Virus record (IMG/VR): IMGVR_UViG_3300032224_001028
Coordinates: 1-63,816 of that record
Length of the DNA: 63,816 bases
Strand: one strand, 5' to 3'
Source of the DNA: a virus
Taxonomy: Duplodnaviria > Caudoviricetes
This document shows, one piece after another, positions 1-63,816 of this stretch (position 1 is the stretch's first letter; every line of letters begins with the position of its first letter). The position numbers were made by a program, and so were the translations under genes. The notes beneath the pieces were generated by a model. The model worked only from the letters and a program-made list of their open reading frames with translations, made no database searches and had not been told where the DNA came from.

Positions 1-123
1 GCGCATGTTGCTCGAAAGGGCAGTGGATCCATCCCAAGCCGGACTGCCTACCGACGTAGAGGTGCGATCCGCCAAGTTGCTTGTCGAAAAGCTGGCACGT
101 AGGGCCATGACTTCGGGCGACGA
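1..123. repeat. Terminal direct repeat (assembly overlap), copy 1; genome is circular or circularly permuted
   Basis: 1-123 is identical to 63694-63816 and lies inside a continuous reading frame. Confidence 0.97.
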
Positions 124-5811: not shown

Positions 5812-5813
5812 TT

Positions 5814-28817: not shown

Positions 28818-28855
28818 TTGTTGTCAGTTTCGTTGCGTCACGACTATTGGAATCG
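28818..28855 (+). promoter_or_regulatory. Early promoter motif copy
   Basis: TTGTTGTCA-N17-CTATTGGAATC-GTG. Confidence 0.75.
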
Positions 28856-41364: not shown

Positions 41365-42095
41365 TCTTTTCCCCAAGGATCCGGTTTCTTTGCGAGGAAC
41401 GTTTCAAAGGGGTTATCCCTGAGCCTTATCCAGCGAGTCAGTTTCTTCCGGATTGGTATAAGAAACTTCCGCACCGGATAGGCAATCAGGGGTTAAGCAA
41501 AGGAACAGTAAAGAGGTGCGCCCCATTCCTAGATTCTCTTTCCGCCGGCTTCATCATTCCTTTGGCCGGTGACGTCGAACTTGTCTCAACCGAGAAGGGA
41601 TCGATTGTCGCAACGGATAGTTCTTTCCCGACGAAAATCATAGGGATGCACCAACCTTGGCAGTTAGGTGGCGAGGCTCATCCATCCCATCCGGCCCAAC
41701 CGCTTAAGTTCTCAAACTTCTGGCATATCCATGTTCCCGCCGGTTGGTCGGTATTGTTCGTGCCTCCCCTAAATAGGGCAGATCCTAGATTTGAGTGTTT
41801 TTCGGCAATCGTTGAATGCGACAAGTTTAAGAATCAGATTAACTTCCCGTTCGTCCTTAAGGATCCCAAGTTTTCCGGAATCATCGAGCAGGGAACACCG
41901 TTGGTTCAGGCTATTCCCTTTAAGCGGTCGGAGATGGGCGGGAGACATTCTTGCGGAACGCTGAGTAAGAAGGATCTGGCTGAGATCAATAAAACAAAAC
42001 TCAAGATGGATGCTCACGAATCGTATTACAGGGATCGGGTTTGGAAAAAGGACGGCAAGAGTCGATGCCCGTTTCATAGGATACTCGGCTTATGA
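41361..42095 (+). CDS. Conserved phage protein (DUF6065-like)
   Basis: PDWYKK, CAPFLD...GFIIP, NFPF and GTPLVQAIPFKR motifs. Confidence 0.6.
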   Translation: MIFSPRIRFLCEERFKGVIPEPYPASQFLPDWYKKLPHRIGNQGLSKGTVKRCAPFLDSLSAGFIIPLAGDVELVSTEKGSIVATDSSFPTKIIGMHQPWQLGGEAHPSHPAQPLKFSNFWHIHVPAGWSVLFVPPLNRADPRFECFSAIVECDKFKNQINFPFVLKDPKFSGIIEQGTPLVQAIPFKRSEMGGRHSCGTLSKKDLAEINKTKLKMDAHESYYRDRVWKKDGKSRCPFHRILGL

Positions 42096-45766: not shown

Positions 45767-45767
45767 T

Positions 45768-46121
45768 ATGGCATACGATAAATCTCCATCGTCCTTCTTT
45801 GGGACAGGCTATTCTTATTCATCAGCAAATAATAAAATCACACTTAGCACTTCTAACTCCACTCATGCAATCAAGCTGGATGAGCTTACAAATAGTGAAG
45901 CTAGCACAACTACGGGTGATGTAAGAAAGCTAGCTTATGCACTTATCTTGTTTATCGAGCAAAGAGTGACGGCACTCGCAGGAAATAAGCCAACGAAGAT
46001 GACAGTCACAACCACTACATCCAACGGAAGCGCACAGGCGTCAGCAGGAGGCTTGCTCAAGACATTTGCTATAACTTTTTATCGCAAAAACACGGCTCAT
46101 TTCGACGTTACTCCGGAGTGA
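45768..46121 (+). CDS. Small virion protein (paralog family)
   Basis: ELTNSEASTTTGDVRK motif. Confidence 0.65.
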   Translation: MAYDKSPSSFFGTGYSYSSANNKITLSTSNSTHAIKLDELTNSEASTTTGDVRKLAYALILFIEQRVTALAGNKPTKMTVTTTTSNGSAQASAGGLLKTFAITFYRKNTAHFDVTPE

Positions 46122-46158
46122 TGCTTGACAGGGCTTGTTGTCCTTCTAACAACATTAT

Positions 46159-48198: not shown

Positions 48199-48211
48199 CA
48201 AAGGAGACAAT

Positions 48212-48556
48212 ATGGCATACACAAAAACACCTACAACTTGGCTCGGAGCCGGCTATTCAGCCAACTCCGGATCAAATACCGTAACATTCACAACCGGTAG
48301 CGCATCTAGCAACGTAACAGTTGCAGAGCTTACCAACACCGAAGCAAATGCAAGTACCGGCGACATCCGGAAAATCATGCTGGCTTTTGTAGAGCAGTTT
48401 TATCGGGCCTACAACGCCACTGCGGTTGCAGATCGGCCATTAAAAATGACGGTCACAAGGAACATAGTTGCCGGTCAGGACAACGTGAATACGGCAAACT
48501 ACCAGTTCAGCTTTACTCTATCCCCCACTGTTCTCGAAGTAGCCGACGAGGTTTAA
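48212..48556 (+). CDS. Small virion protein (paralog family)
   Basis: ELTNTEANASTGDIRK motif; AAGGAG RBS. Confidence 0.65.
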   Translation: MAYTKTPTTWLGAGYSANSGSNTVTFTTGSASSNVTVAELTNTEANASTGDIRKIMLAFVEQFYRAYNATAVADRPLKMTVTRNIVAGQDNVNTANYQFSFTLSPTVLEVADEV

Positions 48557-48559
48557 TCC

Positions 48560-48787
48560 ATGGATGGCGAATCGGGAGTTTTCTCGGTTCCTATCCTTAC
48601 GGATTTTCCGGAGGAGTGGAAACCGAAAAAGTGGAAAAAAGGGTTATCTGTCTCAGAAGCCAATAACCAAGGCGGGGATTGGTATGACAAAATGAAGAGT
48701 GCCGACAGGAAAGCCCAAAAAGAAGCAAAGAATGAGGCAAATAAACAGGCAAATAGAGAATCAGCACAGAAACGTGCAAGCCTATAA
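48560..48787 (+). CDS. Hypothetical protein
   Basis: 75 aa; same frame as the giant ORF, separated by TAA. Confidence 0.5.
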   Translation: MDGESGVFSVPILTDFPEEWKPKKWKKGLSVSEANNQGGDWYDKMKSADRKAQKEAKNEANKQANRESAQKRASL

Positions 48788-48790
48788 TCC

Positions 48791-51700
48791 ATGAGCCTAG
48801 AGAACATCTTCGATGACTCCAAGGGAGCTAGTCGCCTACCTGACTCTAAGAGCGTTGGGATCGACCCAGTTAAACTTGAGGATGTTAATTTTGACCCTAA
48901 AGAGGCGGATCCGGTGGAACCGACTGGTTCTGCCATGGCTTACGCTAGTCCGGTAAATCCAAACCCATCCGGAATCGATTTCAGGTTTATCAGGGATCCT
49001 TACGCCAGAAAGAACTTCAAGGGCGAGATCGATTACGCAAACAAAGCGGATCAATTCAATAGCAGGATTGAATCTGCTCAGGCCCAGCTAAAGGCTAGGG
49101 AAGAGAGAGCAAAGCAAGTAGCGGAGCTTAAGGCTCAAAAGCAACAGGAAGCAGATTTCAAGAAGGGAATGAATAGCGAAAAGGAAGGGCAATACAGGAA
49201 GGCAGGACAAAAGTTTTATACGGATGCTTTTGGTGACGTTCAGCCTCAAGTCAATGAAGAGAACAAGCCAATGTTTGAGCCTACTCCTTGGAAGATTCAA
49301 AAGGGGTTAGATGGGCGAAACGTAAAAACCCGTAGGAATGAGTTTGGGCAAATAGAGACTGAAGATCCTGACAAGGAAGCACCTATTGCAGAATCCAAGA
49401 TTAAACCAAACCAACTTTTCCGGAAGAACAAGCTATCGGAGGATCAATTTGTCGGAACAGTGGATGAAGGTCTTACCTCTGGTGACGAAACAATCCGAGG
49501 TGTGGCGGAACAGGCCAGAGAGAAGCAGAACGATAATCTTCTCAAAGAAACAAGGAACTCGTTTGTACGCCAAGAGCTTAAGGTTAAAGCAGATCTCGAC
49601 GATCATAAACTTCAGATGGCCCAGCTTGCCAAGGCGTCGCAGGAAAACGACATGCTTCCGGATTCGCCTGAGAAGCTAGCAAAGAAGGCTGAAATTGATA
49701 AGGCAATCGAGGACGGTGCGAAAAAAGCGCAAACAATTAGCGAATCACTGCTAGAGGCAAAAGCCCAGCGTGAGGATTTTGAGGCAAGCCAGAGTCTATC
49801 TGCATGGTCAAATGCTGAGAGGGCAAGACTAGATTTCTTGAGAAGCGACAGAGGCGCAGAATATCTAAAGCGAAAAGGAATTGATAGCCCTGAAAAGGAT
49901 CAGGTTTTAATTGATATTCGCAACAAGCTGAATGAGCAGGGCAGGAAAACCTTGGAGCAGTCTCAAAAAAAAACTGAAGATAGAACCCAGCTAGTCGGAA
50001 ACATGATGATTGACGGGGGGGCGCAACCCGAATCATCCAAAAAGAGTCCTGCTTTGCCGATGCAAGACACGGCCACGCTTAGAGAAGCCGATGACAAGTA
50101 CGAAAAACGGGTTAATGAAGCAAAAACGGTAGCAAACGAAATAGGCACAAAAGAAAATGAAAAAGTACGTGCATTATATTCGAATCTAAACGCTAGTGCC
50201 GATGCGGTTACTTCAATCGATAATCAACTCAAAGGATTGCAAGACCGGATGACGGAACTTAAGGCGATGACTGGCGGGAAGATGACTCCCGAAGTTGCCG
50301 GTCGAATCAATGCCTTGGCACAACAAGCAGAAAACCTTAACAAACAAAGGCAGGGGCATGTTGCCAAGTACGAGGAATCGAAGAGTATATTTGATAAGGA
50401 AGTAGGAACATTTGACGAGAAAGGCGGGTTCAAGTCGATTGGTACACGAATGGGGGCGATGTTTGACGCCCAACGCAGTCTTGAAATTGAAGCCAATAAA
50501 GCCGGACAAGAAAGAAACTCAGCCTACGAATCTTTACAGGCAAAGATCGAGCAACAGGCAAAGATTAAGCAGGATACTTTCAAGACAGTCGTAATGCCGA
50601 AGATCGATAGTGCGGTTCGGTCAATGGACGACAAGGCATTCGAGGCTTCAATGAAGGAAGCTACTGACCTTGGAATGGATAAGGAAGTTTCCGAATCGCT
50701 TCGGATGTACTACCAGCAAGCTAAGAAGAAGTATAACGGAAGCGATACAGATTTTTGGGATATGGATGTTTTCAACCTGATGCTTCGAAGTTCGCCGGCC
50801 ATGGGCATGCGTATGATTGGAGCTTTGGCAGATATTGTTGCTGGCGAGAACGATCCTAGAACTTGGTATGTCTTTGGTGAAACACACGAACAAAGGCAAG
50901 CAAGACTAACCTCGTTTGGCGGGGTTGGAGCAGAAACATTGTCACCGGACGTAAAGGCCGGATCCGTTTCAATGGGAATGGGTGACGGGGCAAGGGAAGT
51001 GAGTTTTGGGGAGCTTCTAAGAGAGGCAGAAAAAGCCAAGACAGGCAAATACGACAAGAATGCCGTTCCGGATCCATTTAATCAGGTAATGATTGGTGGA
51101 AGGACATACGATATTGGTACTACCAATTATTTTGTAAATAGCCTTCGCATGGCATCAGAGTATTTAAGAAAAGAAGCTAAAAATCTTGAAGAGGCTCTAC
51201 CGGTATCCGAACAGTTCCTATCAACGGACGTCGGGCAGTTTGCAAAAGGATTGGCAGAGCTTCCGGCTCAAATCGGGCCGGCATTTATTCCTTTTGTTGG
51301 CCCTGCGTTAATGGGAGGTACGGTTTCAGCAGGAATGTACGACGAATACATGCAGGATGCAGAACAAACTGCAATTAAGAACGGTACTGAGTTTGACAGG
51401 CTTTCGGCCCATCAGGGTGCATTAAACTATGTAGCAAAAGGCGCACCGGCTGAAATTGTCTCAAATCTATTAGAGATAAAACTTTTTAAGCTATTTAAGC
51501 CTTTGCTGAATAAAATTACCACAAAGGCACTTGCTGAAGCACTTGGCGGAACGGCAATTTCAGGACTTCTTGGTGGTGGCACTGAGGGATACCAGCAGTA
51601 CATGTTGAACCGCACCAAAAAGTATTTTGATAATATGCCAAATGTCGAACTCACAGATGATGTTTGGCAGAGCTTTAAGATAGGTGGAGCAGTGGAAATG

Positions 51701-54700
51701 TTTATTCCGGCTATGGTTGCCTTGGCTCAATCGGCTCAATCGCAAAACAAGAGATCTACTGATGTTCGTAAGATGATGGAGGATTTTGGGAAGGCTAAAG
51801 AAGAATCGTTGAATGCGCTTCCCGTTGGTCAAAGGGTTACAAATCCTGATCTTTCCGAATATACTCCTAAAGAGATAAGCAAACAGGAAACTAGATTAAA
51901 CTCCATTGATACACGGATTGCTTCTATCGAACTTGAGCTACCCAAGGCAAAGGGAGACAGGAAGCGGGATCTACTGAATGAGGGGGCGCAATTATACGCT
52001 CAAAGAAATCAGATTATCCCTACGGTTACTGTTGGTGCAGAGATGCAGAACCAGATTCAGGAAGAGCTTTCTAGGTTTCCGGCTCAGACCGTAACAGACG
52101 AAAAGGGCAAGGTTGTATCAGAAGCAAAGCTAGGCCCAGTACGGGCATTGGCTAAGTATGCCTCAGGAGCAGAGCTTTCGTTCGACGAAATGGCAGAAGA
52201 GCTTCCCGATGGATCTCCCGTATTCGGCAAAGACAAGAACGGGGCCGTCGTTGTGTCACAAAGGGCAATCGACCAGTATCGAAATACTGCCTCTACGATC
52301 TCTGCCCTAGCTCAAGGCAGGAGCGTACTGAACGCTCGGTCAATGCTTGAGGAAAAGCAGGATCAGCAAAAGGCAAAAACCACTTCAGTTGTCGCAAAAG
52401 ATCGCAAGGAGGAGTCCGGCAATCTGTTCAGGGTGCGGGTTACGGACACAGCAACGATGCAGGATCGTGAGGTAGATGTCCGTTCAGAATCTCCCGAAAG
52501 GGCTAGATTAACGATTGCGGGTAGTCCTAAGGATTACGGATTTGATGGTGGAATTAGGGTAGGGGAAGCAATCCCAGTGGGTGCGGGTGATAATAAACAG
52601 GGTGCAAATGTCGGCAAAGCGACAACAATGCCTCAAAATGCGTTCAGGAGGCCGATTACAGGCAAGGAAAGAACATCCTTGGTAAGATCCATTCTGGACG
52701 CCCCGCCTGAGCGTAGAAAGGCTTTACAGAAGATTTCTGAGTCCGTCGGTGGTCTTGTTGAAAACTACAAGAGCATGTTCGACTCGGTGGACTTCACCGC
52801 ACAGGACAATATCTCTGGTGGCGTACAGATCCGATTCTCACCTGACGGAAAGACAAGAAAGCTAGCGATTAGCCTTACCGGACTGCAAAGGGAGCTTCAA
52901 GGAGCCGAAAATCCCGATCAGGTACTTCTTGGGAAGTTTGTCGAGGAAGTTACTCATTCGGTTGGGGTTCAGGTTGTTTCGAGGGAGGAATCACAAAACA
53001 TTTCAAAAACGATGTCACCAAAACTCCGGAGAGCATTCGTTGATTCTTATTACGCATCAGAAAAATCCGCCGGCAAACAGGGCAAGATTAGCTCTGATAG
53101 CGCATTCTCTGGTGAGCTTACCGATTTAGAGCATTATGAAATAGGGCAAGAGTTCATACGAGCGATTGTCCAGAAGGATGAGCGTGTTTTGGGCTTCATG
53201 ACTGAAGAGGCTCAAACCAATCCGGAGTTTTTGCCCTACTTCATAAACGCACTTAAAAAGATCCTAGATGCGATAACTTCCGGTACGTACAAGATGGACG
53301 CTCCTTTAGCCAACGAAGCTAAAGAGCGAATCATCAGCATGATGGACAAGCTAGGAGCGTTAAACAAAATATCTGCGGATCGGGCGAAAATTGGCTATGG
53401 AAACAGTGCCAAGACAACCGACACTGCAACCGTTCAAGGGGTTCCCGCCACAGGATTACCTACTTCTGTTCCTCAGAATAGAAGTGGAGTTGGAACTGGA
53501 TCAGTTAGCCAAACGAATGAGGGAGGAACCACCGGAGCAAGTGGGTTGGCAGGATCTCCCGCTATTTCAACACAAGGACGTAGCTACAATGTAGCTACAC
53601 CAAAAAATACGATGAGCGTTCCCGTTCAAGGGAAACTCGTCGAATTGGGAGATCTAAAATCATCGGCTGGAACAAACCTTCAGCCACGGGATAGGACACG
53701 GGCGGGTAACAGGGAACAAGAGCTAAAAATTGCAAGGAATCCAAATCATGCGATGTGGGCTAGGCCGGCTTCAACTTCTGATACCGGTCTTACGATTGTA
53801 GGCAAGGATGGTCGTATTTATAGCGGTCACGGAAGGACAAACGCCAAGAACCTTGTCTATCAAATGGCCGAGACACCATCGGCAGATCAAGCATTAGGCC
53901 AAAAGAACGCTCAAGGGCTTAGGGATGAGATCAAGAACACGATGCGACAGATGGGCGAACCGGAATCGGAGATAGCAAAGGTCGATACAATGAAACGCCC
54001 CGACTACGTGGGTGTGTATCAGGGTGACGAGAATCCGAGCAAGATCCGGCAATTCGTCAGGGATTCAAACATCGAGGGGATGAGTGTAGCGGAACAAGCA
54101 TCATACGATGCGCTTGAGTTTATCGATAATCCCAAGCTGATCAGCAACCTACGGGCCGGATCGAATGGAGAGATACTTCTTAAGCGCAACGACAAGGTTT
54201 TATCAGATTTCTACAATGCAATCGGATCCCCTAGAGAGTTAAGGAAGAAAGATGGATCTTGGAGTAAGGCCATGGAAAGCAGGGTAATGGGCGCACTCAT
54301 GGCCCTTAACTTCGGTCAGAATAGCGATACTCTCATCACAACCCTTACGGAAGATGCTGAAAATCTCGGTCTTATTGGACTCCGTGCTGGACTTGTACAG
54401 GCTGGGCCTGATCTTGCGATTCTCGGTGATGGGGAATTGGACATTAAGCCAACCCTGACAAGGGCCGTGGAAGAGTTTGTTAAGTACAAAGAAAACGATG
54501 GGAAAATGGAGGACTTCTTAAGCCAAGGGAGACTCCAAGGGATTGAATCGGAAGCGTCACAAGAGACTGAGTTCATGATGAGAACCATCGCAGAGAATCC
54601 CACGGGCCGAGCGATTGGTGACTTCCTGAGAACCTATGCGGTTTCCGCAGTAGCCATGAAGCGAGAGCGTCAAGCCTACGGGGGTGGGATGTTCCCCGAA

Positions 54701-57700
54701 ACAGAAGTACCCCTCAATGTCATGGATGTTCTCAAAATGGCAACATCCATTGTATCAAAGGGTGATTCAACACAGACCCTTAGTAGTCCCGCAAGGAATA
54801 CCGCAGAGACGTTAGCCGGAAAACTTTCAGCATTTCTTGATCTTTCCAAGAATCCACAAAAGCAAAAAATCGCCCAATACGTTGCAAACTACCATAAAAA
54901 CGGTTTATACGGGCTAATCAATAAGATGCTTGAACCGGTTCCATCCGGAGCATCCCTGCCTCCTCAGGCATACCAATTTGAAGAGAGACTTGAGAAGATC
55001 CTTTCGGTTGGTGATCCGGCTATCGACATCACGCTTCCAGATGGCAACAAGGTAAAGCTGGACGGTGTAGGAGCAAGCAAGGTACTTGCGGGTTTCTTGG
55101 AAGGCGTAAGCAAGCAACAGGACAACTTTAGAGAACTGATTGGAAAGGTTACTGCCGGAAGAGACTGGGTTGCGCTAGTTGCCTCTCCCAAAAAGATGAA
55201 GAGGCTTGCCGAGAAAATAATTTTCGAAAAGAAGGGCATAGTTGCAGATGACGCAAAAGATATTCTTCGGGCCACGATTGCCGTCAATACATTGGATGAA
55301 ATGGATGAGGCGATTGCTGAAATCCAAAAATACGCAAGAGTAACGCAAGATAAGAAGAATCTTTATTTGGACACCGAGAACACTGGCTATGCCCACCGGT
55401 TAATTCTTATTCAATGGGACGGGTTAAATTGGGAGGCAGAAGTACAGATTAACTTACCCGAAATGTTGTTGGCTAAGGATATTGGACATCGTTTTTACGA
55501 AAAGATCCGTAGCCTTGAGGCTTTAGCTACAACTCTTCGAAATAATGAAGAAGTTCTGGCTATCGAACGTCAAATCGAAGAACTAAAAGAAAAGGTTAAT
55601 CAGGTTTGGCGAGGCGCACGGGACTTGATCACTAAACGCTTAAACGCATCCAAGGATCTTACCCGTGGAGCTTCAAACGTGGAGACAAGTGGAAATCGAG
55701 TAAGCGGAATATCATCGCAACGCCAAGCCCTTACTCCAAGTACTGCAACAGGGGTATCATCAACATCAAATAGTTCTGTTTTTGGATCCGAAATCAATTC
55801 TTCGAGATCCGGAGCCTTGGACGCTTCATCAGGTGTTGTTGGCATGACAACAATCAATAGCCAGAAATACGCAGTTCCGCAACCCGAAAGTATCGTTTAT
55901 GCAAATGTCGAGGATTTCAGGGGTACGGTGGATAGTTCTAGGTTGGCAAACGTTCCAGAAAACGAGGCTTCTCTTGGTACTATCTTCAATACAAAGGCAT
56001 CAGGATCATTCGTCGTTAAGCTAGATAAGCTGATTTCACCGGTAAATGAGCTTAACGACGAGGGATTTGTAGCAGGAAAGAAGGCGGATCCACGACAAAC
56101 AGCTATCAATCGCATGGTTTCAAACCTTGATGGAGAGACATTTACACCAAGAGAACCTATTGACCTTGCGGATAACGGTGATGGGACTTACACAATTATT
56201 GACGGAAATGCTACTGCCCAAGGACTTATGTTGGCAGGATGGCAAAATGCGGTTGGAGTTGTTAAGGAGTTTGCCCTTTCAGCCCCCCGTCGAAACACTC
56301 AAGACGCTAATCAATTAAGCCTATTTGACGAAACCGGAAGTGCTTCGGTGTTGTCAAACAGCAAACAAGGGGGTATTGAAAGTGGAGAACAATATGGACA
56401 ACCAAGAACAAGACAATCAACCGGAGAATCCGCCCAAACTCAGGACGGACTACGAGGGAGCGATGAGCTTTTTGGCGAATACGCCAACGGATCAACTCAA
56501 CCAACTAGCCAAGAATCCGGCACTCCTAGAGAAGTTTATTCTAGAGAGGTATCCGGAAACGGAATGGATTCAGTCGGACAACGAGGCGGAGTCGAGCCAA
56601 CAGGCGGAACTAGATCAGGAGACGGTGTACAAAGCGGAACGCAAGATGCTAATACTATCGACGGAGAATCCGGAAGAGTGGTCAGTAATCAAGACGGTGC
56701 TAGAGAAAATCTGCCCGTTCGATCTAAACCTACCGTAGAACGTCCTGCGGAGGGTTCGCCCGACAGAAATCACGAAATTGCCCCTGAGGACATACTTGCC
56801 CCAAGGGGTGACGTAACAAGACTCAAGACAAACATATCGGTAATTAAACTACTCAAGCAACTTGAGTCAGAGGACAGGAATGCAACGACTGAAGAGAAAA
56901 AGATCCTAGCTCAGTACGTAGGATGGGGTGGTTTGTCACAAGCCTTAGATGAAGATAAAGCAGAAAGAGCAAGTGACATGGATTTTCAGCGACGATACAT
57001 GGATGAGGAAACAATTAAGTCGATTGAAAACTGGAATAAGAAATACGGTAAGTATTACACTGAAGTAAAAGACCTTCTTTCTGAGGATGAGTTTAGATCT
57101 GCAAAGGCAAGTACAACTAATGCCCACTATACGTCGCCTCAGGTCATTAAATACATGTGGGATGCGGTCAGGAAACTGGGATTCGATGGCGGAACAGTAC
57201 TCGAACCCGCCGGTGGGGTTGGTCACTTCTTTGGGCTAATGCCGAAGGATATGGCCGATGCGTCCTACACAAAGGCCGTCGAGCTTGACTCTCTATCCGG
57301 AAGGATCATGCGGAAACTCTATCCCGAAACCGACGTTCAGATCACAGGATTTCAGGATGCAGAGATTCCTGATAATTCTATCGACCTTGCCATATCGAAC
57401 GTGCCTTTTGCCAATGTTGCAATATACGATGCCGGCCTTGAAGCGCAGGGTGCGCCCAAATTGTCACTTCATAACTATTTCTTTGCCAAGGCACTTGAGA
57501 AGGTTCGGCCCAGCGGGGTTATAGCCTTTATCACAACAAGCAATACTCTGGACGCCAACGTTGCTCAGAGGAAATGGATTGCAGACCACGGGGAACTAAT
57601 TGGCGCAGTAAGACTTCCAAACACTGCATTCAGCGAAAATGCAAATACAGAGGTCACCACGGACATTATTTTCATGAGAAAGCCGGACGGCAAGATGCCT

Positions 57701-60700
57701 AGCTTTAGTCCGGAGTCATTCAAAAGCACAAAAGAAGTGCCACTAGAGAACGGTGGAACAGTTAAGATCAATGAGTACTTCGCAAGCAATCCCGACATGA
57801 TTCTTGGCCGACTTGCCAACGACGGATCTATGTACGGGGGCAAGGAAGAGATGACGGTACATCCTTTTCAGGATGGCCGAACATTAGAGAGCGTTCTTAG
57901 TCAGTCCCTAGAGAAGTTGTCCGGAGACGTAATGGGCCAGAGCAAACCGGTCAATATGGACGCAGTAAGAAGCGAAGAAGCGATGAGGGGCAAGAAGGTT
58001 GGGACTCTGGCGATGCTTGAGGACGGGAAACTTGGCATAGCCGGAGTAGAAAACTCGGATGAAGAAATCCTTAGTCCAAAAAATCGGCCTATTGCCATGG
58101 GATTCATGCAAGTCAGGGACGCCCTGAATGAATTGTATCGGATGGAAATGGATCCGGAATCTCAGGACGCCGAGATTGAAGATCAACGGAAGGCACTAAA
58201 TGTTGCCTATGACAACTTTGTGGCACGGAATGGATCATTCCATGCAAATAGTAAGCTATTAGACTTTGATCCTGACTATTACCGGATCATAGGAGCCGAA
58301 AATGAGGTAAAGTCTGATAGCAAGGCCGAGAACGTTAAGAAGTTCCTGACTAGGAAAAAGAACTACACAAAGGGTGATATTTTCACAAAGCGGATCCTCA
58401 CCCCAAGGCAGGAGCCTACTTCTGCTTCATCCGTTGAGGATGCTATGGGCATATCCCTTGGATGGAAAGGCACTCTCGACACCGACTACATCGCCGGATT
58501 GGTTGGCAAGTCAAAAGAGGAGGTCGAGAAAGACATTCTTGGCAAGGGTATTGGGTTCAGGGATCCATCTACCGGTCTTGTGTCCACAAAGGAAGAATAC
58601 CTGAGTGGCAACGTAAGAAAGAAACTTAAGATAGCCGAGGAAAAGGCCAAAAAAGACAACAGTTACGAGGCAAACATTGAAGCATTAAAGAAAGTGCAAC
58701 CGGTGGATGTGCCATTCTCCGACATATCAATGAACCTTGGGGCGAACTGGATCCCGACGGACATTATTTCTGACTTTGGTAGAAGCATACTCAAGACACG
58801 GGTTACAGTAACGTACAGCAAGGGGGTCGGGGATGTTTCTTCAGATAGGTACACGGTTACTTACGGATCCGACGGCAAGGGCGCAAGATCAATGGCCGAT
58901 CTTCCCTCAGAAGCCACAAGCATCTACGGCACGGATAGAATGTCAGGAGTTCGACTGCTTGAGATGGCACTTAACATGCAAACGCCGATGGTATTTGACA
59001 CAATCGACGAAAAGAAGGTTTTGAATGCCGGTGAAACCGAAAAGGCAAAACTTGCCATGGAGAAGATCAAGGAATCTTTCGCCCAATACGCATCATCCAA
59101 GCCTGAAGTTTCTGAAGAACTCGCAAAACAGTACAACGAGAAGCGGAACTCCCATGCGTTACGTCAGTACGATGGTCAATTCCTCACATTCCCGTGGCTT
59201 GCTAAGGGATACGACTTATATCCAGACAAAAAGAACGTGGTTTGGAGGGCTATTCAGGACGGCAAAATGCTTATTGCTCACGGGGTTGGAGGAGGAAAGA
59301 CGGTCATCGGCACTGCTTTGACCATGGAACTTCGTCGCCTTGGACTAGCCAAGAAGCCGATGATCGTTGTCCATAACGCTACTTTGGAACAGTTTGCCGG
59401 AACGATTGGAAGAATGGCCCCGACTTCCCGTGTCCTTGTTGCCCGTAAAAAAGACTTCGAAAAGAGCAAGCGAAAGGAGTTTGTGGCGAAAATAGCCTCA
59501 GGAGACTGGGATGCGGTCGTGATGGCCCACTCAACATTTAACCAGATCAAAGACGATCCGGAATACGTAAAAAAGATTACCTATGAGCTTATAGATGAGC
59601 TTCGGGATGCAATCACTCAAACCATGAGTGAAAGCAACGAGGTGAGTCGTTACGGCAGGATCTCCAAAAAGAAAGATCCATCCGTAAAGGAGAAGGAGAA
59701 GCAGATCAAGAGGCTCGAAGAAAGACTCAAGCGAGTACAAGAGCGCAAGGTCGATGATGTCCTTACGTTCCAAGAACTAGGGGTGGACGCTATTATTCTG
59801 GACGAGGCGCATATCTACAAAAAGATGCCTTTCGTAACAAAGCTAAAGAATATCGCCGGCATCGATAATTCGCCCACCGAATCAGGAACAAGCTTATTAA
59901 CCAAAGCACGATTTATTCAGGAAAAGAACAAGGGCCGGAACATCTTCACGATGACTGGCACACCGGTAACAAATACCCTTGGTGAAGTTTGGAATCAGGT
60001 TCGCCTTATCGATCCCGAACTATTGGCCGAGTTTGGTTCATCTAGCTTTGATTCGTTTGTTTCTACATTTGCAGAGGTAGAGAGAAGTGCAGAGCTAAGG
60101 GCCAACGGAAAATATAAGAGCATCCAACGTCTATCGAAATTGGCTAACTTGCCTGAGTGGAACAAGATGTTCCGGACTAGAGCAGACGTCAAGATGGGCG
60201 GGGATATGGTCGTAAAGAACCGGCCTGAAATCAAAGATGGAAAACCTGACCTTATTGCGGTCGAGGCAACTCCTCAGGTAATCGAATACAAAAAGATTAT
60301 CGATAGAATCATCGATGATTTTGACAGCATGGATGGACGAGAAAAGAAGGAAAACAGTCATATTCCGCTAGTTACTTACAATGCTTGCAAACTTGCATCA
60401 ATCGACATGCGTTTGGTGGATGACAAGGCAAAGGATGAGGCGGGAAGTAAATCAAACACCATGATTGAAAAGGTGTTCGAACTTTACAAGAGAACGAATG
60501 ATTACAACGGAACCCAAGTAATCTTCTCTGATCGTTACCGGCCCATGAAAACGGAATCCTTGTCATTCAATGGATTGGATTCGGGCGTTGAAACTGATGA
60601 CAGTGAAGATTCGGGAATGGATCTTATTTCTGGTGCAAAAGAGGAAGAAAAAGAAGAGCGTGAAGCGGAATCCATGGGCGGATTCAACCTTTATACAGAC

Positions 60701-63700
60701 ATCAAAGAGAAGCTGATCAAAAAGGGAGTAAAGCCTGAAGAGATTGCAATTATTAACGATTTCAAGACCGATCAAGCAAAAGAGCAGTTATTCGAGAGGG
60801 TGAACAACGGAACTGTTCGTATCATTATCGGATCGACACAAAAGCTGGGAACTGGCGTGAATATGCAAGGCCGGATGATTGCCGGACATAACTTGGACGT
60901 GCCTTGGACTCCGGCAGAGATGGAGCAACGGGACGGGCGGGTAATCCGTCAGGGCAACATTCACTCAGAGCTTGGCATACCGGTCGAGATCTACCGGTAC
61001 GGTATGAAGGATACGTTGGATTCGGCCCTTTGGCAGAAGCTAGAGTTTAAGGAAAGATTCATTAAACAGGCATTGAGTGGCAAGATTAGCGGTCGTGTCA
61101 TTGAGGATGATTCGGGGCTACTCAGCCTAGCAGAGCAAAAGGCGATCTTGTCCGGCCCGATGGGGCTTGAGAAGTTTAACACCGAGACAAAGATCCGTGA
61201 GCTAGAAAATCAGGAACGGGCATGGGTGCAATCATCGTTCGATGCGATTCAGGCCGGCAAGACTGCCGAGCTTCAGGTTAAGGCATACGAAAACAGGCTT
61301 AACCAGACAAGGGAGTTCCTAAGCGAAGTATCAAACTGGACGCCTGAGCCTACGGCCATGATTGAAGGCGTAGCATTAACGAAAGAAAACGACATCCGTG
61401 ACGCTATTCAGGAGTACTTTGATAAGCGCAGAGATCAGGCCATCCAAACCGGAAAATCGTTCCGAGCATCAGTAGAAGCAAAGAAGCCTTTGGGAGAATT
61501 TACATACAATGGAACAAAAATAACTCTTTCGCCAGCTTCAGTAGATGAAGTGCTAGGTGAACCGGATCCCAAGAAAGCCATTAAGGTAGAAACCGGCGTC
61601 ATGGTCAATGGCCGTGACTTGGGTGCAAAGGTAAAGAGCGCAGGATACGTCGTGAGCGCATTAAGGGATCTCGTTAAGAACCTTAAGAGTTATGAGCAAC
61701 AGTTTATCAACGGCATGGGATCGGCCCAAGAAACGGCAGATTCAGCGACAATCGCATCCTCCAAGGCATTCCCAAGGAAGGAAGAGCTAGATGGTCTTAG
61801 AGCTAAATACGCTAAGATCATGGAGGATTACACGGACAAGGGTAAGACAAATAGGGTTGAAGCAGAGCAAATGCAGTTAAACGCTCCCGCCCTTACGCCA
61901 AGCAAGGCAAGCCTACTCTCCAAAGATGCTATGAACCTGATCGAGCCTATTGCTAGGTCGTTCGTTTCCCCGCAGACATCGCTAGACGAGGCTATTCAGA
62001 TTGGCCGGATCGCACTCATCAAAGCAGTGCAGGGATTCGATCCGAATGCCGGTGATTTTGATAAATACGCAAAGGCAGTAGTTCGGAACGCACTTAAAAA
62101 GAACTACTCAAGGAACGAGGCGTCGGCCCGTGAGATCTCCATGAGATCCATGAACATTGACTCTCCGGTGTCCGGAGAAAGCACGGCCCCGCTGGGTAGC
62201 ATCATTCCGGACGAAAACCAGAGCTTGCCGTCGCAGTCGGCGATTACAAACGACGCACAGAGGCTCATGCAAACCATGATTGACGGACTACCGGTGCGCC
62301 CACGGACGGTTGTATCGGCATACATGAACGGGGAAGGGGTTGCCCAAATCGCAGAAAAGATGGGCATTTCCCGCCAATACGCTTTGACGATGCTCAACAA
62401 TGCTCTCTCAGTACTCCGGAAAAGGTTGGCAAAGGTCGGGATCGAGGAAACCAAGGATCTCATCTCCGGATCCACACGGGAGATTATATCCAGACTGAAC
62501 GCACCGTTAAGAGCAATCACAACGGAAGAGGAGAAGGCTCAGGCCGAGTATCTCACCGAATTGGCCCAAAGCAGAGGATTGACGTTGGATCAGTTTGCCA
62601 CGGAAAGAATCGATGAGTTCCTAGATAGCGCAAAGGCATGGAGACAGGCGCATCCTATTCAAGATGATGACATGCAAGTACTTGGGGCTTCAAATAGGCG
62701 CATCAAATCAAAGTTCCTCACGCCAGTCAGCAAGAGATATGAGGCAGAACAGTTTGAACTAGCATTCGTTAAATCAATGGTAGAGGTGGCAGACAAAGAC
62801 CAAGCCGGAAAGCAGGACATGTCAGAAGAAGGCAAAGCATATCTAATCGATGTCCTTGCCGAGTATCTAGCGTCGAAAACGTCTTTGGATGAAGTGGCAA
62901 AGGGGCAGATCCAGACAGATAAAAGCTTAGATAAATACCCCGATCTCAAGTGGTCTTTTCAGAAGTTTGGTAAAATTGCAGATAAAAACTCTGCGTTTTA
63001 TGATCTCAGTCAGGAGAACAACAAGAAAATATGGGAAGCATATAAACTGCTTGAACAGAACGAAAATAACTCAGTAATCGCATTCGAAAACGACCAAGGC
63101 GACAAACTTCTAGTATCTAAAGCAATAATCAATCCTGAAGATAATGTCGGAATAAATGACTACAACTATAAAGAAGTTCCACTCACAGATTTCAGAAACA
63201 CCGCATACCGACTTACAAAATACACAAGCAGTTTTGGAATACTCGGTGCAATTACAAACCCAACGACAGTAATTACCCCCGAAGGAGACAGCATTACACC
63301 GGCTTGGCATTCATTCTTTCCAAATAAAACTCAGGCAGTGATGAGTGCGATGGGCATAAAGAACCCGCAAAGGGAGACGTACGACGATTACAAGCCTATG
63401 GAATCCTTATTCTCTCCCAGTCGGAATCCAGACATGGATGCAGTTGAGGAGTACATGGACTATCTAGGTAAAGAGTTGCCTGAAACGAATGAGCTAATCA
63501 ACAAGGCAGATAACGAACGTAACAGATTCAAAATCACAGGAAACCCAACGCTAGCCAACCCCGCTAAGGGCATGGGGCGCAACCTAGTGAATGCAGTGGA
63601 TGAGGCTCGAAAAGACATACTGCAACGCCGGCCAGACGTTATCGTGATGGCCGAGGCCCGTGCGCTACTCGCAAATGACGAGGAAGGCGTAAAGCGCATG

Positions 63701-63816
63701 TTGCTCGAAAGGGCAGTGGATCCATCCCAAGCCGGACTGCCTACCGACGTAGAGGTGCGATCCGCCAAGTTGCTTGTCGAAAAGCTGGCACGTAGGGCCA
63801 TGACTTCGGGCGACGA
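48791..63816 (+). CDS. Giant polyvalent protein (~5,919 aa including 1..2857), N-terminal and central part
   Basis: ATG at 48791; the ORF track reports no ORF in this frame, so no stop occurs before the window end; hand translation gives several coherent domains; frame continues into 5..2857. Confidence 0.9.
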   Translation, partial: MSLENIFDDSKGASRLPDSKSVGIDPVKLEDVNFDPKEADPVEPTGSAMAYASPVNPNPSGIDFRFIRDPYARKNFKGEIDYANKADQFNSRIESAQAQLKAREERAKQVAELKAQKQQEADFKKGMNSEKEGQYRKAGQKFYTDAFGDVQPQVNEENKPMFEPTPWKIQKGLDGRNVKTRRNEFGQIETEDPDKEAPIAESKIKPNQLFRKNKLSEDQFVGTVDEGLTSGDETIRGVAEQAREKQNDNLLKETRNSFVRQELKVKADLDDHKLQMAQLAKASQENDMLPDSPEKLAKKAEIDKAIEDGAKKAQTISESLLEAKAQREDFEASQSLSAWSNAERARLDFLRSDRGAEYLKRKGIDSPEKDQVLIDIRNKLNEQGRKTLEQSQKKTEDRTQLVGNMMIDGGAQPESSKKSPALPMQDTATLREADDKYEKRVNEAKTVANEIGTKENEKVRALYSNLNASADAVTSIDNQLKGLQDRMTELKAMTGGKMTPEVAGRINALAQQAENLNKQRQGHVAKYEESKSIFDKEVGTFDEKGGFKSIGTRMGAMFDAQRSLEIEANKAGQERNSAYESLQAKIEQQAKIKQDTFKTVVMPKIDSAVRSMDDKAFEASMKEATDLGMDKEVSESLRMYYQQAKKKYNGSDTDFWDMDVFNLMLRSSPAMGMRMIGALADIVAGENDPRTWYVFGETHEQRQARLTSFGGVGAETLSPDVKAGSVSMGMGDGAREVSFGELLREAEKAKTGKYDKNAVPDPFNQVMIGGRTYDIGTTNYFVNSLRMASEYLRKEAKNLEEALPVSEQFLSTDVGQFAKGLAELPAQIGPAFIPFVGPALMGGTVSAGMYDEYMQDAEQTAIKNGTEFDRLSAHQGALNYVAKGAPAEIVSNLLEIKLFKLFKPLLNKITTKALAEALGGTAISGLLGGGTEGYQQYMLNRTKKYFDNMPNVELTDDVWQSFKIGGAVEMFIPAMVALAQSAQSQNKRSTDVRKMMEDFGKAKEESLNALPVGQRVTNPDLSEYTPKEISKQETRLNSIDTRIASIELELPKAKGDRKRDLLNEGAQLYAQRNQIIPTVTVGAEMQNQIQEELSRFPAQTVTDEKGKVVSEAKLGPVRALAKYASGAELSFDEMAEELPDGSPVFGKDKNGAVVVSQRAIDQYRNTASTISALAQGRSVLNARSMLEEKQDQQKAKTTSVVAKDRKEESGNLFRVRVTDTATMQDREVDVRSESPERARLTIAGSPKDYGFDGGIRVGEAIPVGAGDNKQGANVGKATTMPQNAFRRPITGKERTSLVRSILDAPPERRKALQKISESVGGLVENYKSMFDSVDFTAQDNISGGVQIRFSPDGKTRKLAISLTGLQRELQGAENPDQVLLGKFVEEVTHSVGVQVVSREESQNISKTMSPKLRRAFVDSYYASEKSAGKQGKISSDSAFSGELTDLEHYEIGQEFIRAIVQKDERVLGFMTEEAQTNPEFLPYFINALKKILDAITSGTYKMDAPLANEAKERIISMMDKLGALNKISADRAKIGYGNSAKTTDTATVQGVPATGLPTSVPQNRSGVGTGSVSQTNEGGTTGASGLAGSPAISTQGRSYNVATPKNTMSVPVQGKLVELGDLKSSAGTNLQPRDRTRAGNREQELKIARNPNHAMWARPASTSDTGLTIVGKDGRIYSGHGRTNAKNLVYQMAETPSADQALGQKNAQGLRDEIKNTMRQMGEPESEIAKVDTMKRPDYVGVYQGDENPSKIRQFVRDSNIEGMSVAEQASYDALEFIDNPKLISNLRAGSNGEILLKRNDKVLSDFYNAIGSPRELRKKDGSWSKAMESRVMGALMALNFGQNSDTLITTLTEDAENLGLIGLRAGLVQAGPDLAILGDGELDIKPTLTRAVEEFVKYKENDGKMEDFLSQGRLQGIESEASQETEFMMRTIAENPTGRAIGDFLRTYAVSAVAMKRERQAYGGGMFPETEVPLNVMDVLKMATSIVSKGDSTQTLSSPARNTAETLAGKLSAFLDLSKNPQKQKIAQYVANYHKNGLYGLINKMLEPVPSGASLPPQAYQFEERLEKILSVGDPAIDITLPDGNKVKLDGVGASKVLAGFLEGVSKQQDNFRELIGKVTAGRDWVALVASPKKMKRLAEKIIFEKKGIVADDAKDILRATIAVNTLDEMDEAIAEIQKYARVTQDKKNLYLDTENTGYAHRLILIQWDGLNWEAEVQINLPEMLLAKDIGHRFYEKIRSLEALATTLRNNEEVLAIERQIEELKEKVNQVWRGARDLITKRLNASKDLTRGASNVETSGNRVSGISSQRQALTPSTATGVSSTSNSSVFGSEINSSRSGALDASSGVVGMTTINSQKYAVPQPESIVYANVEDFRGTVDSSRLANVPENEASLGTIFNTKASGSFVVKLDKLISPVNELNDEGFVAGKKADPRQTAINRMVSNLDGETFTPREPIDLADNGDGTYTIIDGNATAQGLMLAGWQNAVGVVKEFALSAPRRNTQDANQLSLFDETGSASVLSNSKQGGIESGEQYGQPRTRQSTGESAQTQDGLRGSDELFGEYANGSTQPTSQESGTPREVYSREVSGNGMDSVGQRGGVEPTGGTRSGDGVQSGTQDANTIDGESGRVVSNQDGARENLPVRSKPTVERPAEGSPDRNHEIAPEDILAPRGDVTRLKTNISVIKLLKQLESEDRNATTEEKKILAQYVGWGGLSQALDEDKAERASDMDFQRRYMDEETIKSIENWNKKYGKYYTEVKDLLSEDEFRSAKASTTNAHYTSPQVIKYMWDAVRKLGFDGGTVLEPAGGVGHFFGLMPKDMADASYTKAVELDSLSGRIMRKLYPETDVQITGFQDAEIPDNSIDLAISNVPFANVAIYDAGLEAQGAPKLSLHNYFFAKALEKVRPSGVIAFITTSNTLDANVAQRKWIADHGELIGAVRLPNTAFSENANTEVTTDIIFMRKPDGKMPSFSPESFKSTKEVPLENGGTVKINEYFASNPDMILGRLANDGSMYGGKEEMTVHPFQDGRTLESVLSQSLEKLSGDVMGQSKPVNMDAVRSEEAMRGKKVGTLAMLEDGKLGIAGVENSDEEILSPKNRPIAMGFMQVRDALNELYRMEMDPESQDAEIEDQRKALNVAYDNFVARNGSFHANSKLLDFDPDYYRIIGAENEVKSDSKAENVKKFLTRKKNYTKGDIFTKRILTPRQEPTSASSVEDAMGISLGWKGTLDTDYIAGLVGKSKEEVEKDILGKGIGFRDPSTGLVSTKEEYLSGNVRKKLKIAEEKAKKDNSYEANIEALKKVQPVDVPFSDISMNLGANWIPTDIISDFGRSILKTRVTVTYSKGVGDVSSDRYTVTYGSDGKGARSMADLPSEATSIYGTDRMSGVRLLEMALNMQTPMVFDTIDEKKVLNAGETEKAKLAMEKIKESFAQYASSKPEVSEELAKQYNEKRNSHALRQYDGQFLTFPWLAKGYDLYPDKKNVVWRAIQDGKMLIAHGVGGGKTVIGTALTMELRRLGLAKKPMIVVHNATLEQFAGTIGRMAPTSRVLVARKKDFEKSKRKEFVAKIASGDWDAVVMAHSTFNQIKDDPEYVKKITYELIDELRDAITQTMSESNEVSRYGRISKKKDPSVKEKEKQIKRLEERLKRVQERKVDDVLTFQELGVDAIILDEAHIYKKMPFVTKLKNIAGIDNSPTESGTSLLTKARFIQEKNKGRNIFTMTGTPVTNTLGEVWNQVRLIDPELLAEFGSSSFDSFVSTFAEVERSAELRANGKYKSIQRLSKLANLPEWNKMFRTRADVKMGGDMVVKNRPEIKDGKPDLIAVEATPQVIEYKKIIDRIIDDFDSMDGREKKENSHIPLVTYNACKLASIDMRLVDDKAKDEAGSKSNTMIEKVFELYKRTNDYNGTQVIFSDRYRPMKTESLSFNGLDSGVETDDSEDSGMDLISGAKEEEKEEREAESMGGFNLYTDIKEKLIKKGVKPEEIAIINDFKTDQAKEQLFERVNNGTVRIIIGSTQKLGTGVNMQGRMIAGHNLDVPWTPAEMEQRDGRVIRQGNIHSELGIPVEIYRYGMKDTLDSALWQKLEFKERFIKQALSGKISGRVIEDDSGLLSLAEQKAILSGPMGLEKFNTETKIRELENQERAWVQSSFDAIQAGKTAELQVKAYENRLNQTREFLSEVSNWTPEPTAMIEGVALTKENDIRDAIQEYFDKRRDQAIQTGKSFRASVEAKKPLGEFTYNGTKITLSPASVDEVLGEPDPKKAIKVETGVMVNGRDLGAKVKSAGYVVSALRDLVKNLKSYEQQFINGMGSAQETADSATIASSKAFPRKEELDGLRAKYAKIMEDYTDKGKTNRVEAEQMQLNAPALTPSKASLLSKDAMNLIEPIARSFVSPQTSLDEAIQIGRIALIKAVQGFDPNAGDFDKYAKAVVRNALKKNYSRNEASAREISMRSMNIDSPVSGESTAPLGSIIPDENQSLPSQSAITNDAQRLMQTMIDGLPVRPRTVVSAYMNGEGVAQIAEKMGISRQYALTMLNNALSVLRKRLAKVGIEETKDLISGSTREIISRLNAPLRAITTEEEKAQAEYLTELAQSRGLTLDQFATERIDEFLDSAKAWRQAHPIQDDDMQVLGASNRRIKSKFLTPVSKRYEAEQFELAFVKSMVEVADKDQAGKQDMSEEGKAYLIDVLAEYLASKTSLDEVAKGQIQTDKSLDKYPDLKWSFQKFGKIADKNSAFYDLSQENNKKIWEAYKLLEQNENNSVIAFENDQGDKLLVSKAIINPEDNVGINDYNYKEVPLTDFRNTAYRLTKYTSSFGILGAITNPTTVITPEGDSITPAWHSFFPNKTQAVMSAMGIKNPQRETYDDYKPMESLFSPSRNPDMDAVEEYMDYLGKELPETNELINKADNERNRFKITGNPTLANPAKGMGRNLVNAVDEARKDILQRRPDVIVMAEARALLANDEEGVKRMLLERAVDPSQAGLPTDVEVRSAKLLVEKLARRAMTSGD
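52700..53370 (+). other. Domain: zincin-like metallopeptidase variant
   Basis: FVEEVTHSV (EExxH) at ~52940 and a downstream GQEFIRAIVQ helix. Confidence 0.45.
53406..53594 (+). CDS. Candidate overprinted gene (+1 frame) in giant-ORF linker
   Basis: CTGCGG-N16-CTATGGAAACA-GTG; host frame is a T/G/S linker here. Confidence 0.45.
   Translation: MPRQPTLQPFKGFPPQDYLLLFLRIEVELELDQLAKRMREEPPEQVGWQDLPLFQHKDVATM
53580..54700 (+). other. Domain: DdrB-like ParB
   Basis: LQPRDRTR...Q...IA...TSDTG..IVGKDG..YSGHGRT. Confidence 0.75.
55100..55620 (+). other. Domain: RelA/SpoT nucleotidyltransferase (toxSAS-like)
   Basis: KKMKRLAEK, KDILRATI, TGYAH, EVQI and AKDIGHRFYEKIR motifs. Confidence 0.8.
55600..55845 (-). 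CDS. Candidate antisense-overprinted gene (81 aa), possible antitoxin
   Basis: MPTTPDEASKAPDLEELISDPKTELFDVDDTPVAV...; TTGCGG-N17-TATTGA upstream; sense frame is an S/T-rich linker. Confidence 0.6.
   Translation of the reverse strand: MPTTPDEASKAPDLEELISDPKTELFDVDDTPVAVLGVRAWRCDDIPLTRFPLVSTFEAPRVRSLDAFKRLVIKSRAPRQT
55900..56275 (+). other. Domain: ParB/sulfiredoxin-like
   Basis: PREPIDLADNGDGTYTIIDGNAT. Confidence 0.65.
56382..56738 (+). CDS. Candidate overprinted gene (+1 frame; GTG 56382 or ATG 56394)
   Basis: TGTTGTCA-N17-TATTGAA promoter motif; GGAG RBS; helical acidic product. Confidence 0.65.
   Translation: MENNMDNQEQDNQPENPPKLRTDYEGAMSFLANTPTDQLNQLAKNPALLEKFILERYPETEWIQSDNEAESSQQAELDQETVYKAERKMLILSTENPEEWSVIKTVLEKICPFDLNLP
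56760..57930 (+). other. Domain: DarB-like N6-adenine DNA methyltransferase
   Basis: YVGWGG, NAHYT, VLEPAGGVG (57203), VELD and ISNVPF (57398) motifs. Confidence 0.9.
58000..61250 (+). other. Domain: DarB-like SNF2/SF2 helicase
   Basis: AHGVGGGKT (~59280), DEAH (59801), TGTPVTN, GTGVNMQ and EQRDGRVIRQGN motifs. Confidence 0.9.
61889..62460 (+). other. Domain: sigma-70-family factor (regions 2 and 4)
   Basis: LIEPIARSF..SLDEAIQIGRIALIKAVQGFDP..FDKYA...VRNAL; LPVRPRTVV...GEGVAQIAEKMGISRQY....NNALSVLRKRL. Confidence 0.85.
63694..63816. repeat. Terminal direct repeat (assembly overlap), copy 2
   Basis: Identical to 1-123. Confidence 0.97.

Follow-up and report, generated by a model that had tools for sequence, protein, structure and literature searches.

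The window analysed here is the whole of IMG/VR record IMGVR_UViG_3300032224_001028 (63,816 bp; Duplodnaviria; Caudoviricetes), and all positions are given in its numbering. Split between the two ends of this record is a gene for a single protein of 5,919 residues, in which we found a complete sigma-70 module. Our best reading, to which we give a probability of roughly 55%, is that this is a polyvalent protein, carried in the virion and ejected into the host, by which the phage delivers a sigma factor of its own along with an alarmone-type synthetase and antirestriction enzymes. DarB-like virion proteins of giant size are already known, and size alone is no novelty. The new element is the strongly conserved sigma module placed within this known class of giant polyvalent DarB-like proteins.

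The open reading frame (ORF) listing of the record contained two incomplete frames, one of 5008 aa at 48791..63814 (+) with an open 3′ end, and one at 2..2857 (+) with an open 5′ end. The record repeats its first 123 bases exactly at 63694-63816, so that the unit genome is 63,693 bp; IMG/VR classes the record under ‘direct terminal repeats’. When one copy of the repeat was removed, a single frame without in-frame stop was obtained across the junction, beginning with ATG 48791 and closed by the stop codon at 2855-2857 (5,919 codons, 17,760 nt). An earlier reading of this DNA, made from the letters alone (hereafter the sequence-only reading), had given this frame, its length and its share of ~28% of the genome, and these figures were exact. 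The gene occupies 27.9% of the unit and predicts a mass of 653.5 kDa. Its first part, 48791..63816 (+), encodes residues 1-5009 and enters the terminal repeat, the ATG being placed one codon past an in-frame TAA; the second part, 124..2857 (+), encodes residues 5010-5919 and the stop. The sequence-only reading had put this continuation at 5..2857, with the stop correctly placed but not the start, as the non-redundant part begins at base 124.

A frame of this kind could be produced by an assembly chimera, or by genes fused through sequencing errors, with a join across the contig ends that is not real: the frame is cut by the record ends, and circular assembly leaves repeats of this type. Other assemblies argue against this. 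Single called genes on two other contigs encode full-length versions, of 5,921 aa (P0001, 94.6% identical end to end) and 5,901 aa (P0002, 85.2% identical). The related complete record G001 (64,634 bp) has one open frame over residues ~1907-5919, the window's junction site included. Its own end repeats (~127 bp) are also inside the giant gene, but elsewhere, at residues ~1440-1481. Because G001 is cut at another place and is open over the window's junction, we take the end repeats of both records to mark places where an assembly, circular or circularly permuted, was cut arbitrarily, and not physical ends. The C-terminal part was also found at 96-98% identity in five further viral contigs, and the circular junction is bridged by a 608-nt contig from another DNA run (X2), which spans the junction-equivalent site. 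The ratio of non-synonymous to synonymous substitution rates (dN/dS) relative to G001 was 0.013-0.118 in 20 of the 21 segments covering residues 1-5919, which indicates purifying selection; the lone exception, with 1.56 and a dS of only 0.04, was a Gly/Ser-rich linker (residues 2520-2690). Two RNA libraries have contigs on the giant gene, which is weak support, as DNA carry-over is possible and the gaps are uninformative. For practical purposes an artefact is excluded, and we hold it as nearly certain that this is one real gene with the multi-domain architecture described below.

The sigma-70 module extends over residues 4383-4546 (61937..62428, +) and comprises region 2, a region-3.2-like linker and the helix-turn-helix (HTH) of region 4. 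The sequence-only reading had placed a sigma-70 domain in this protein, and the profile searches agree: TIGR02937 matched with E 2.1e-16, at 60 bits against a cut-off of 42.9 and over model positions 13-165 of 165, while PF04542 (Sigma70_r2) scored 31.7-36.8 bits against a cut-off of 24 in three separate searches. With phmmer against the PDB, residues ~4378-4440 align with region 2 of RpoS and SigA, and residues ~4450-4530 with RpoS from region 3.2 to 4, the pattern ‘S.D.P..G.S...L..I..DE’ included. Compared to G001, the sigma segment has a dN/dS of 0.016 with a dS of 0.31. It is followed by a fast-evolving orphan stretch, residues 4560-4870 (dN 0.13). No other Sigma70_r2 match was found in the genome.

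With the sigma region as query, an exhaustive phmmer search through 1.84 billion representatives returned 1,128 proteins at E≤1e-3. The best 150 of these include 34 giants of 2,018-6,277 aa in which the sigma module is internal, 8 proteins of 600-2,000 aa and 108 shorter ones. The window protein was compared by BLASTP with these 34 giants. The sigma module was common to 33 of them, by construction of the set, the C-terminal residues 5290-5870 to 25, residues 4920-5190 to 24, the helicase to 12, the N-terminus to 11, the methyltransferase to 10 and the ddrB region to 6. At ~30% identity, the giants keep the pattern Q.AR.AL..AA..FDP..G.F..YA...IRN.L..LY ... SLD.P ... LP.R ... G.....IA...G.S.Q ... 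A...LR..L...GI. The cargo varies from one to the next. In a Pfam scan of six relatives, ART-PolyVal and LPD38 were found in P0004, ddrB-ParB and a 2H phosphoesterase in P0005, RadC and LPD3 in P0040, and little besides sigma in P0011, P0015 and P0058; precomputed matches gave Zeta_toxin and helicase families for a further relative, P0003. A sigma module together with an internal-virion-protein-like C-terminal module recurs in dozens of 50%-identity clusters, in proteins of 2,000-6,300 aa. In a quick maximum-likelihood tree of the sigma modules, those embedded in giants clustered, with 15 label changes compared to 31.4 in shuffles (0 of 500 as low). Among 50,697 phage records, only 3 fragmentary matches to the sigma region were present.

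The C-terminal module suggests a link of the protein to the virion. It starts with residues ~4870-5009 (63398..63816, +) and goes on at 124-2854, with a mostly alpha-helical core at residues ~5290-5870 (965..2707, +). The profile phrog_6651, ‘internal virion protein’, matched at E 7.6e-8. By tblastn, 8 phage records were found (pelagiphages, cyanopodoviruses and one Desulfovibrio phage; E 2e-9 to 2e-6, 22-25% identity); the annotation of the match reads internal virion protein, with or without the letter D, in 7 of them and hypothetical in the other. Pelagibacter phage HTVC041P encodes its homologue, of 1,205 aa, at the T7 gp16 position, with tail tubular protein B on one side and the tail fibre on the other. 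When an AlphaFold2 (AF2) model of the C-terminus was compared to BFVD with Foldseek, 56 matches were obtained at E≤1e-3. They include C-terminal pieces of ART-PolyVal-like, LPD-containing, MuF-C-containing and PolyVal ART proteins, and also internal virion proteins of S-CBP2, S-CBP3, S-RIP1 and a pelagiphage. Neither a Pfam nor an NCBIfam family was found on the module; 15 shorter C-terminal homologues likewise had no match to these families and carry no sigma module.

This end of the protein had been described as LPD38-like. We reject LPD38 at the level of sequence: PF18857 matched neither the C-terminus nor the 15 homologues, and a profile built from 39 C-terminal segments missed, at E≤0.01, the region of P0004 that is LPD38 with E 1.1e-40. 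A genome search with PF18857 gave 0 candidates, a result of little weight since the control genomes gave no signal either. Judging from the models, a distant fold relation to LPD38 is possible.

The centre of the protein, residues ~2530-4379 (56378..61927, +), is a DarB-like core composed of an N6-adenine-type methyltransferase (MTase) followed by an SNF2/DEAH helicase. It was matched by phrog_10089 with E=0, in an alignment to positions 1470-3238 of this 4647-position profile, and by phrog_11801 at 5e-183. The MTase motifs EPAGGVG (residue 2805) and NVPF (2870) and the helicase motifs GGGKT (3500), DEAH (3671), TGTP (3722) and QRDGRVIR (4046) are intact, as are the motifs of the sigma module. 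Pfam recognised ResIII, SNF2 and Helicase_C on the helicase part. Over ~1,600-1,800 aa, the MTase-helicase core is ~33-35% identical to the giants of PEp14 (gp27, 4,914 aa), SopranoGao and Atu_ph08, and the description of the protein as a giant, polyvalent and DarB-like one is supported. Two publications bear on the fate of such proteins. In PMC9144972, the DarB-like gp69 of podophage JC1, of 4,515 aa, is reported in purified virions by mass spectrometry, with 51 unique peptides. PMC6630229 reports that P1 DarB, which guards the DNA against type I restriction, is packaged and acts on entry, and gives a length of 4,877 aa for the Atu_ph08 giant, gp21.

Two further domains were recognised in the N-terminal 2,500 residues. 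A ddrB-like ParB superfamily domain is found at residues 1606-1711 (53606..53923, +; PF18763, E 2.5e-13 and 6.5e-14), and likeness to P1/P7 DdrB, measured by tblastn, reaches about residue 1838. Residues ~2100-2290 (55088..55660, +) correspond to a RelA/SpoT-like nucleotidyltransferase, resembling a small alarmone synthetase (SAS), which is borne out by its fold. Foldseek comparison of the AF2 model with the PDB gave 41 matches at E≤1e-3, all those listed being SAS, Rel, SpoT, CapRel or Tas1, and the best having E 5e-6 and probability 1.00 (target template modelling score 0.39-0.53). The predicted local distance difference test (pLDDT) of the blocks of this model was mostly 57-86, and dropped to 35-47 in blocks 4-6. 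Positions K, R, E-K, D, G-Y, E and H..YE..R are invariant in 4 homologues, and may have catalytic roles. A six-frame search of the genome with PF04607 gave 0 candidates, while this family is present on 15-34% of the members of the nearest Atlas clusters. Among proteins of 149-475 aa, the only homologue of the segment was one fragment of the same gene.

Five of the ten domains named in the sequence-only reading are therefore borne out (ddrB-ParB, RelA/SpoT, DarB-like MTase, SNF2 and sigma-70); a zincin and a second ParB/Srx domain found no more support than LPD38. The region called zincin-like is a highly conserved block, residues 1290-1600 (52658..53590, +; dN/dS 0.053), which ranks with the most conserved ones of the alignment, residues 1349-1498 being 100% identical to P0001 and 96% identical to P0002. 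A zincin or metallopeptidase (MPTase) was rejected, as neither HExxH nor HxxEH occurs in the whole protein and PF18818 gave 0 candidates in the genome. The look-alikes of this block proposed by a language model are LPD23 and LPD1 clusters, which we regard as a lead only. The supposed second ParB/Srx is a conserved block containing IIDGNATAQ, residues 2400-2500 (55988..56290, +; dN/dS 0.043), on which there was no Pfam match, where PF02195 gave 0 candidates and where the AF2 pLDDT is below 50. Further upstream, where the sequence-only reading had placed a coiled-coil N-terminus, residues ~90-640 are rich in Lys, Glu, Ala and Gln, and include the stretch shared with 11 of the 34 sigma-bearing giants (residues ~100-400; 49088..49990, +), which had no Pfam or PHROG match; residues 640-1000 are Ala/Gly-rich with one hydrophobic segment, 961-982. 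A sequence search of the PDB found no match for residues 1-1600 or 2001-2520. Two linkers, at residues 2290-2400 and 2520-2690, are rich in Ser, Thr and Gly. The second (56350-56860), rich in Gly, Ser, Glu and Arg, is the segment with the dN/dS of 1.56 given above, and relaxed constraint or a recent exchange is possible there.

The giant gene is placed in the head-morphogenesis block, between terminase and portal. Upstream are the terminase (42092-43825), ORF 43859-45766, which weakly resembles a virion-structural-protein family (E 2.5e-7 at best), and three ORFs without assignment; downstream are the portal (2899-5001) and the major head protein (10407-11906). Polyvalent proteins have been proposed to be injected with the DNA, and some to carry N4-type virion RNA polymerase modules (Iyer, Burroughs, Anand, de Souza and Aravind 2017, PMC5512222). 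The gene described here has several features of this class: ddrB-ParB, RelA/SpoT-like, MTase, SNF2 and sigma-70 domains in one frame, with portal, terminase and head genes near. From the homology of the C-terminal module to internal virion proteins, together with the JC1 gp69 precedent, we consider it likely that the protein is packaged in the virion and ejected.

Alternatively, the protein may not be delivered with the DNA at all. It would then be made in the infected cell and perhaps cut by a host protease or an unrecognised phage protease, its sigma being an ordinary middle or late factor and its enzymes acting on replicated DNA. The Ser/Thr/Gly-rich linkers could be the cleavage sites, free sigmas of ~200-250 aa are the nearest neighbours of many giant-embedded modules, and the gene is away from the gp16 position. 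We nevertheless find this alternative unlikely. The gene is inside the head-morphogenesis block, no peptidase domain was found in the protein, and its C-terminal module is homologous to internal virion proteins. A sigma that was no more than a soluble late factor would moreover not account for the linkage of sigma and C-terminal modules in 25 of the 34 giants. Where DarB-like giants were tested for it, they proved to be part of the virion (PMC9144972).

If the protein is delivered, the following sequence of events can be proposed. The C-terminal module, perhaps together with the conserved N-terminus, would load the protein into the capsid and let it leave by the tail along with the DNA. The entering DNA would be shielded from restriction by the MTase/helicase and the DdrB-like parts. 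The RelA/SpoT-like part might make an alarmone, or pyrophosphorylate a nucleotide or tRNA, and so change host physiology. By binding the host core RNA polymerase, the sigma module would steer this enzyme to phage promoters immediately, ahead of all phage gene expression. T7 gp16, P1 DarB and the N4 virion RNA polymerase (vRNAP) are all carried in the capsid and enter with the DNA. That the sigma module is active as an initiation factor at entry is, from its sequence, a tentative proposal, which we rate somewhat below even odds.

Several observations weigh against the reading as a delivered protein with an active sigma factor. For the sigma module, PF08281 (Sigma70_r4_2) alone scored 21.3-23 bits, below its cut-off of 25.7. 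In the alignment with RpoS and SigA, the two Trp of region 2.3/2.4 of primary sigmas are replaced by Val-Val, these Trp being presumably the aromatics used for -10 melting. The quick tree mixed giant-embedded modules with free sigmas of ~200-250 aa and did not resolve the window's row; for this reason we propose no common origin of the modules and no direction of transfer. PF04607 on the RelA/SpoT-like segment was below cut-off, with 14.5-15.4 bits against 27 (E 0.024-0.043). The C-terminal model, built from a 16-sequence alignment, had a mean pLDDT of 58.9 and a predicted template modelling score of 0.52, residues 320-944 being mostly at 55-90. In the PDB, the C-terminus found no match by sequence, alone or as profile A1, nor by fold at E≤1e-3, and the proposed tie to T7 gp16 comes from synteny and from how pelagiphage and cyanophage proteins have been annotated. 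The gene, between terminase and portal, is neither at the gp16 position nor at that of the PEp14 giant. As no processing peptidase was found, sigma may have to act while embedded in the 653.5-kDa chain. Lastly, two single-protein queries found no prophage relative in 185,579 species genomes.

In another explanation, the protein is ejected, but its sigma module serves as a grip on the host core RNA polymerase and not as a promoter-specific initiation factor. The module would either sequester the enzyme, causing host shut-off, or tether it to the ejection complex, where transcription would draw in the genome. E. coli RNA polymerase pulls the T7 genome in by transcription. The best-conserved parts of the module are the region 2.2-like core-binding motif and the region-3.2-like linker, the aromatics that we take to serve -10 melting are not kept, and the module adjoins the gp16-like module in 25 of the 34 giants, all of which would suit a grip. 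However, the HTH of region 4 is kept across the giants (LP.R...G...IA...G.S.Q...A...LR) under strong purifying selection, which argues for DNA recognition, and the genome has an over-represented motif that a dedicated sigma could read. We judge a mere grip quite improbable.

The motif in question, the promoter-like TTGTCA-N15-18-ACTAT, occurs 4 times against 0.16 expected, always within 24.3-28.9 kb: at 24348-24374 on the minus strand, and at 25540-25566, 27086-27112 and 28821-28847 on the plus strand. The three plus-strand copies are spaced by ~1.5-1.7 kb and each is followed by a conserved leader of ~30 nt (ACTATTGAAATCGTGAACGAAAAAAACCTC). A second element, TTGTTGYCA, was counted 13 times against 1.17 expected; it is concentrated at 21419-28826, in the regulatory and early region, and also present at 37926, 40916, 47963, 55042 and 55845. 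Palindromes TTGTTG-N9-CAACAA were found at 9276, 23555, 33300, 37912, 40902 and 46133, 1-90 nt upstream of ORF starts, and may act as operators or promoter elements or fold into RNA hairpins. As several copies of the motif take part in such palindromes, their reader could be a host sigma, the phage sigma or a repressor.

Translation of the giant gene appears to depend on its upstream neighbours. A 75-aa ORF (48560..48787, +) is placed directly upstream in the same frame, and ends with TAA-TCC-ATG at the giant ORF start. The junction TAATCCATG is found on both sides of this small ORF, at 48556-48562, where ORF 48212-48556 meets it, and again at 48785-48793, where it meets the giant ORF. In G001 this position has GTG as the start codon, and the TAA that precedes it by one codon is conserved. 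The giant ORF has no Shine-Dalgarno motif of its own; 17 of 28 other starts have one. The repeated TAATCCATG junctions suggest translational coupling, and a serial coupling leading into the giant ORF is probable from this arrangement. A sigma-70-type promoter consensus had 0 matches in 44000-49500 against 7.9 expected, so that no obvious promoter is present directly upstream.

Elsewhere in the genome, we assigned a RecT-like protein (31641-32363), an exonuclease (32360-33415), a replication-initiator (36487-37173) and a DnaC-like loader (37178-37999). No RNA or DNA polymerase was found among the 20 ORFs scanned against PHROGs, and the genome has no tRNAs. The frequency of Shine-Dalgarno motifs presumably argues against a Bacteroidota host. 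Near-identical DNA was present in the runs of 17 studies, freshwater or lake metagenomes where the habitat was labelled, and in small shares RNA libraries were included; the phage lineage appears to be widespread in lakes. Two repeat arrays were also noticed. At 14014-14900 (ORFs 13788-14480 and 14492-15061), an array with a period of 12 nt, in which 48 overlapping copies of 183 nt were counted, encodes a four-residue repeat protein, and the AT skew around this part of the genome is 0.37. At 15870-16798, inside the 930-aa ORF 15058-17850, units of 27-45 nt are repeated (GGTGGATCAATAAATACCTCTGGCGG-like); this ORF probably encodes a repeat-bearing tail or fibre protein.

These results lead us to a broader and more speculative proposal, namely that a large uncultivated group of phages has a sigma factor in its virions as an integral part of a gp16-like ejection protein, so that the first host core enzyme met would already be reprogrammed. 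As part of the same proposal, the sigma and C-terminal modules, in some giants with the N-terminus, would be the constant scaffold, and the DarB-type MTase/helicase, RelA/SpoT, ART, 2H, RadC and Zeta-kinase domains the exchangeable cargo. Were this so, it would be a third route of immediate-early takeover, beside virion RNA polymerases (N4, phiKZ, crAss-like) and modification of the host RNA polymerase (T4 Alt), and the ejection-protein scaffold would be a general carrier for anti-defence cargo. If ejected with the DNA, the protein would represent a previously undescribed seizure of host transcription ahead of phage gene expression. In the main texts of the open literature that was searched, no virion-borne or polyvalent-embedded sigma factor was described. 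Candidate promoters (TTGTCA-N15-18-ACTAT) are at hand in the genome. On the practical side, gene callers split genes across the ends of circular assemblies, and 28% of the genome was hidden here in this way.

The protein can be compared to several known systems. Its nearest relatives in the DarB-like core are the giants of Bcep22/PEp14/PBC5-like podophages, which belong to the same PHROG family, phrog_10089, and whose genes are likewise among virion genes and take up 22-24% of a ~60-kb genome, compared to 27.9% here. The likeness to the Bcep22/PEp14-like giants is limited to residues ~2530-4400. In the N-terminal 2,500 aa, likeness to the 25 matched records is restricted to the ddrB region, residues ~1590-1982, and the C-terminal 951 aa have no match in Bcep22/PEp14/PBC5-like phages. 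The gene position also differs, since the PEp14 gene comes after the tail and internal-protein genes and before lysis, and not between terminase and portal. Lytic transglycosylase or peptidase N-termini, described for Bcep22/PEp14-like giants in PMC6630229, were not found in the window protein.

With the polyvalent proteins, as presented in PMC5512222, it shares the presence of many unrelated effector domains in one chain, in a phage with a portal-terminase system, and the same phage-type domains, DdrB-ParB, SWI2/SNF2, MTase and RelA/SpoT. The zincin-like MPTase, a processing device that is common, though not universal, among those proteins, was not found here. Conversely, the sigma-70 module is not among the domains covered in the main text of PMC5512222, where the word ‘sigma’ has 0 occurrences.

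Among the Autographiviridae, internal virion protein D of pelagiphages and cyanopodoviruses resembles the C-terminal module: the alignment covers residues ~5311-5772 with 22-25% identity and the predicted folds match, but those internal virion proteins are stand-alone, with 770-1,600 aa. The RelA/SpoT-like domain is alike in fold to small alarmone synthetases and toxic RelA/SpoT homologues (RelP/RelQ, CapRel, Tas1), with the Lys/Arg, Asp, Gly-Tyr, Glu and His-x-x-Tyr-Glu positions kept; here it is embedded in a giant protein, and its substrate may be GTP/GDP, ATP or tRNA.

Finally, the mechanism proposed for the sigma module joins a short series of virion-delivered aids to transcription. N4 vRNAP and the phiKZ virion RNA polymerase are such aids, and T4 Alt modifies the host RNA polymerase. 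The task would be the same in all, to obtain phage transcription from the first moment by means of a capsid-borne protein. The cargo would differ, being here neither a polymerase nor a modifying enzyme, but a specificity subunit for the host core.

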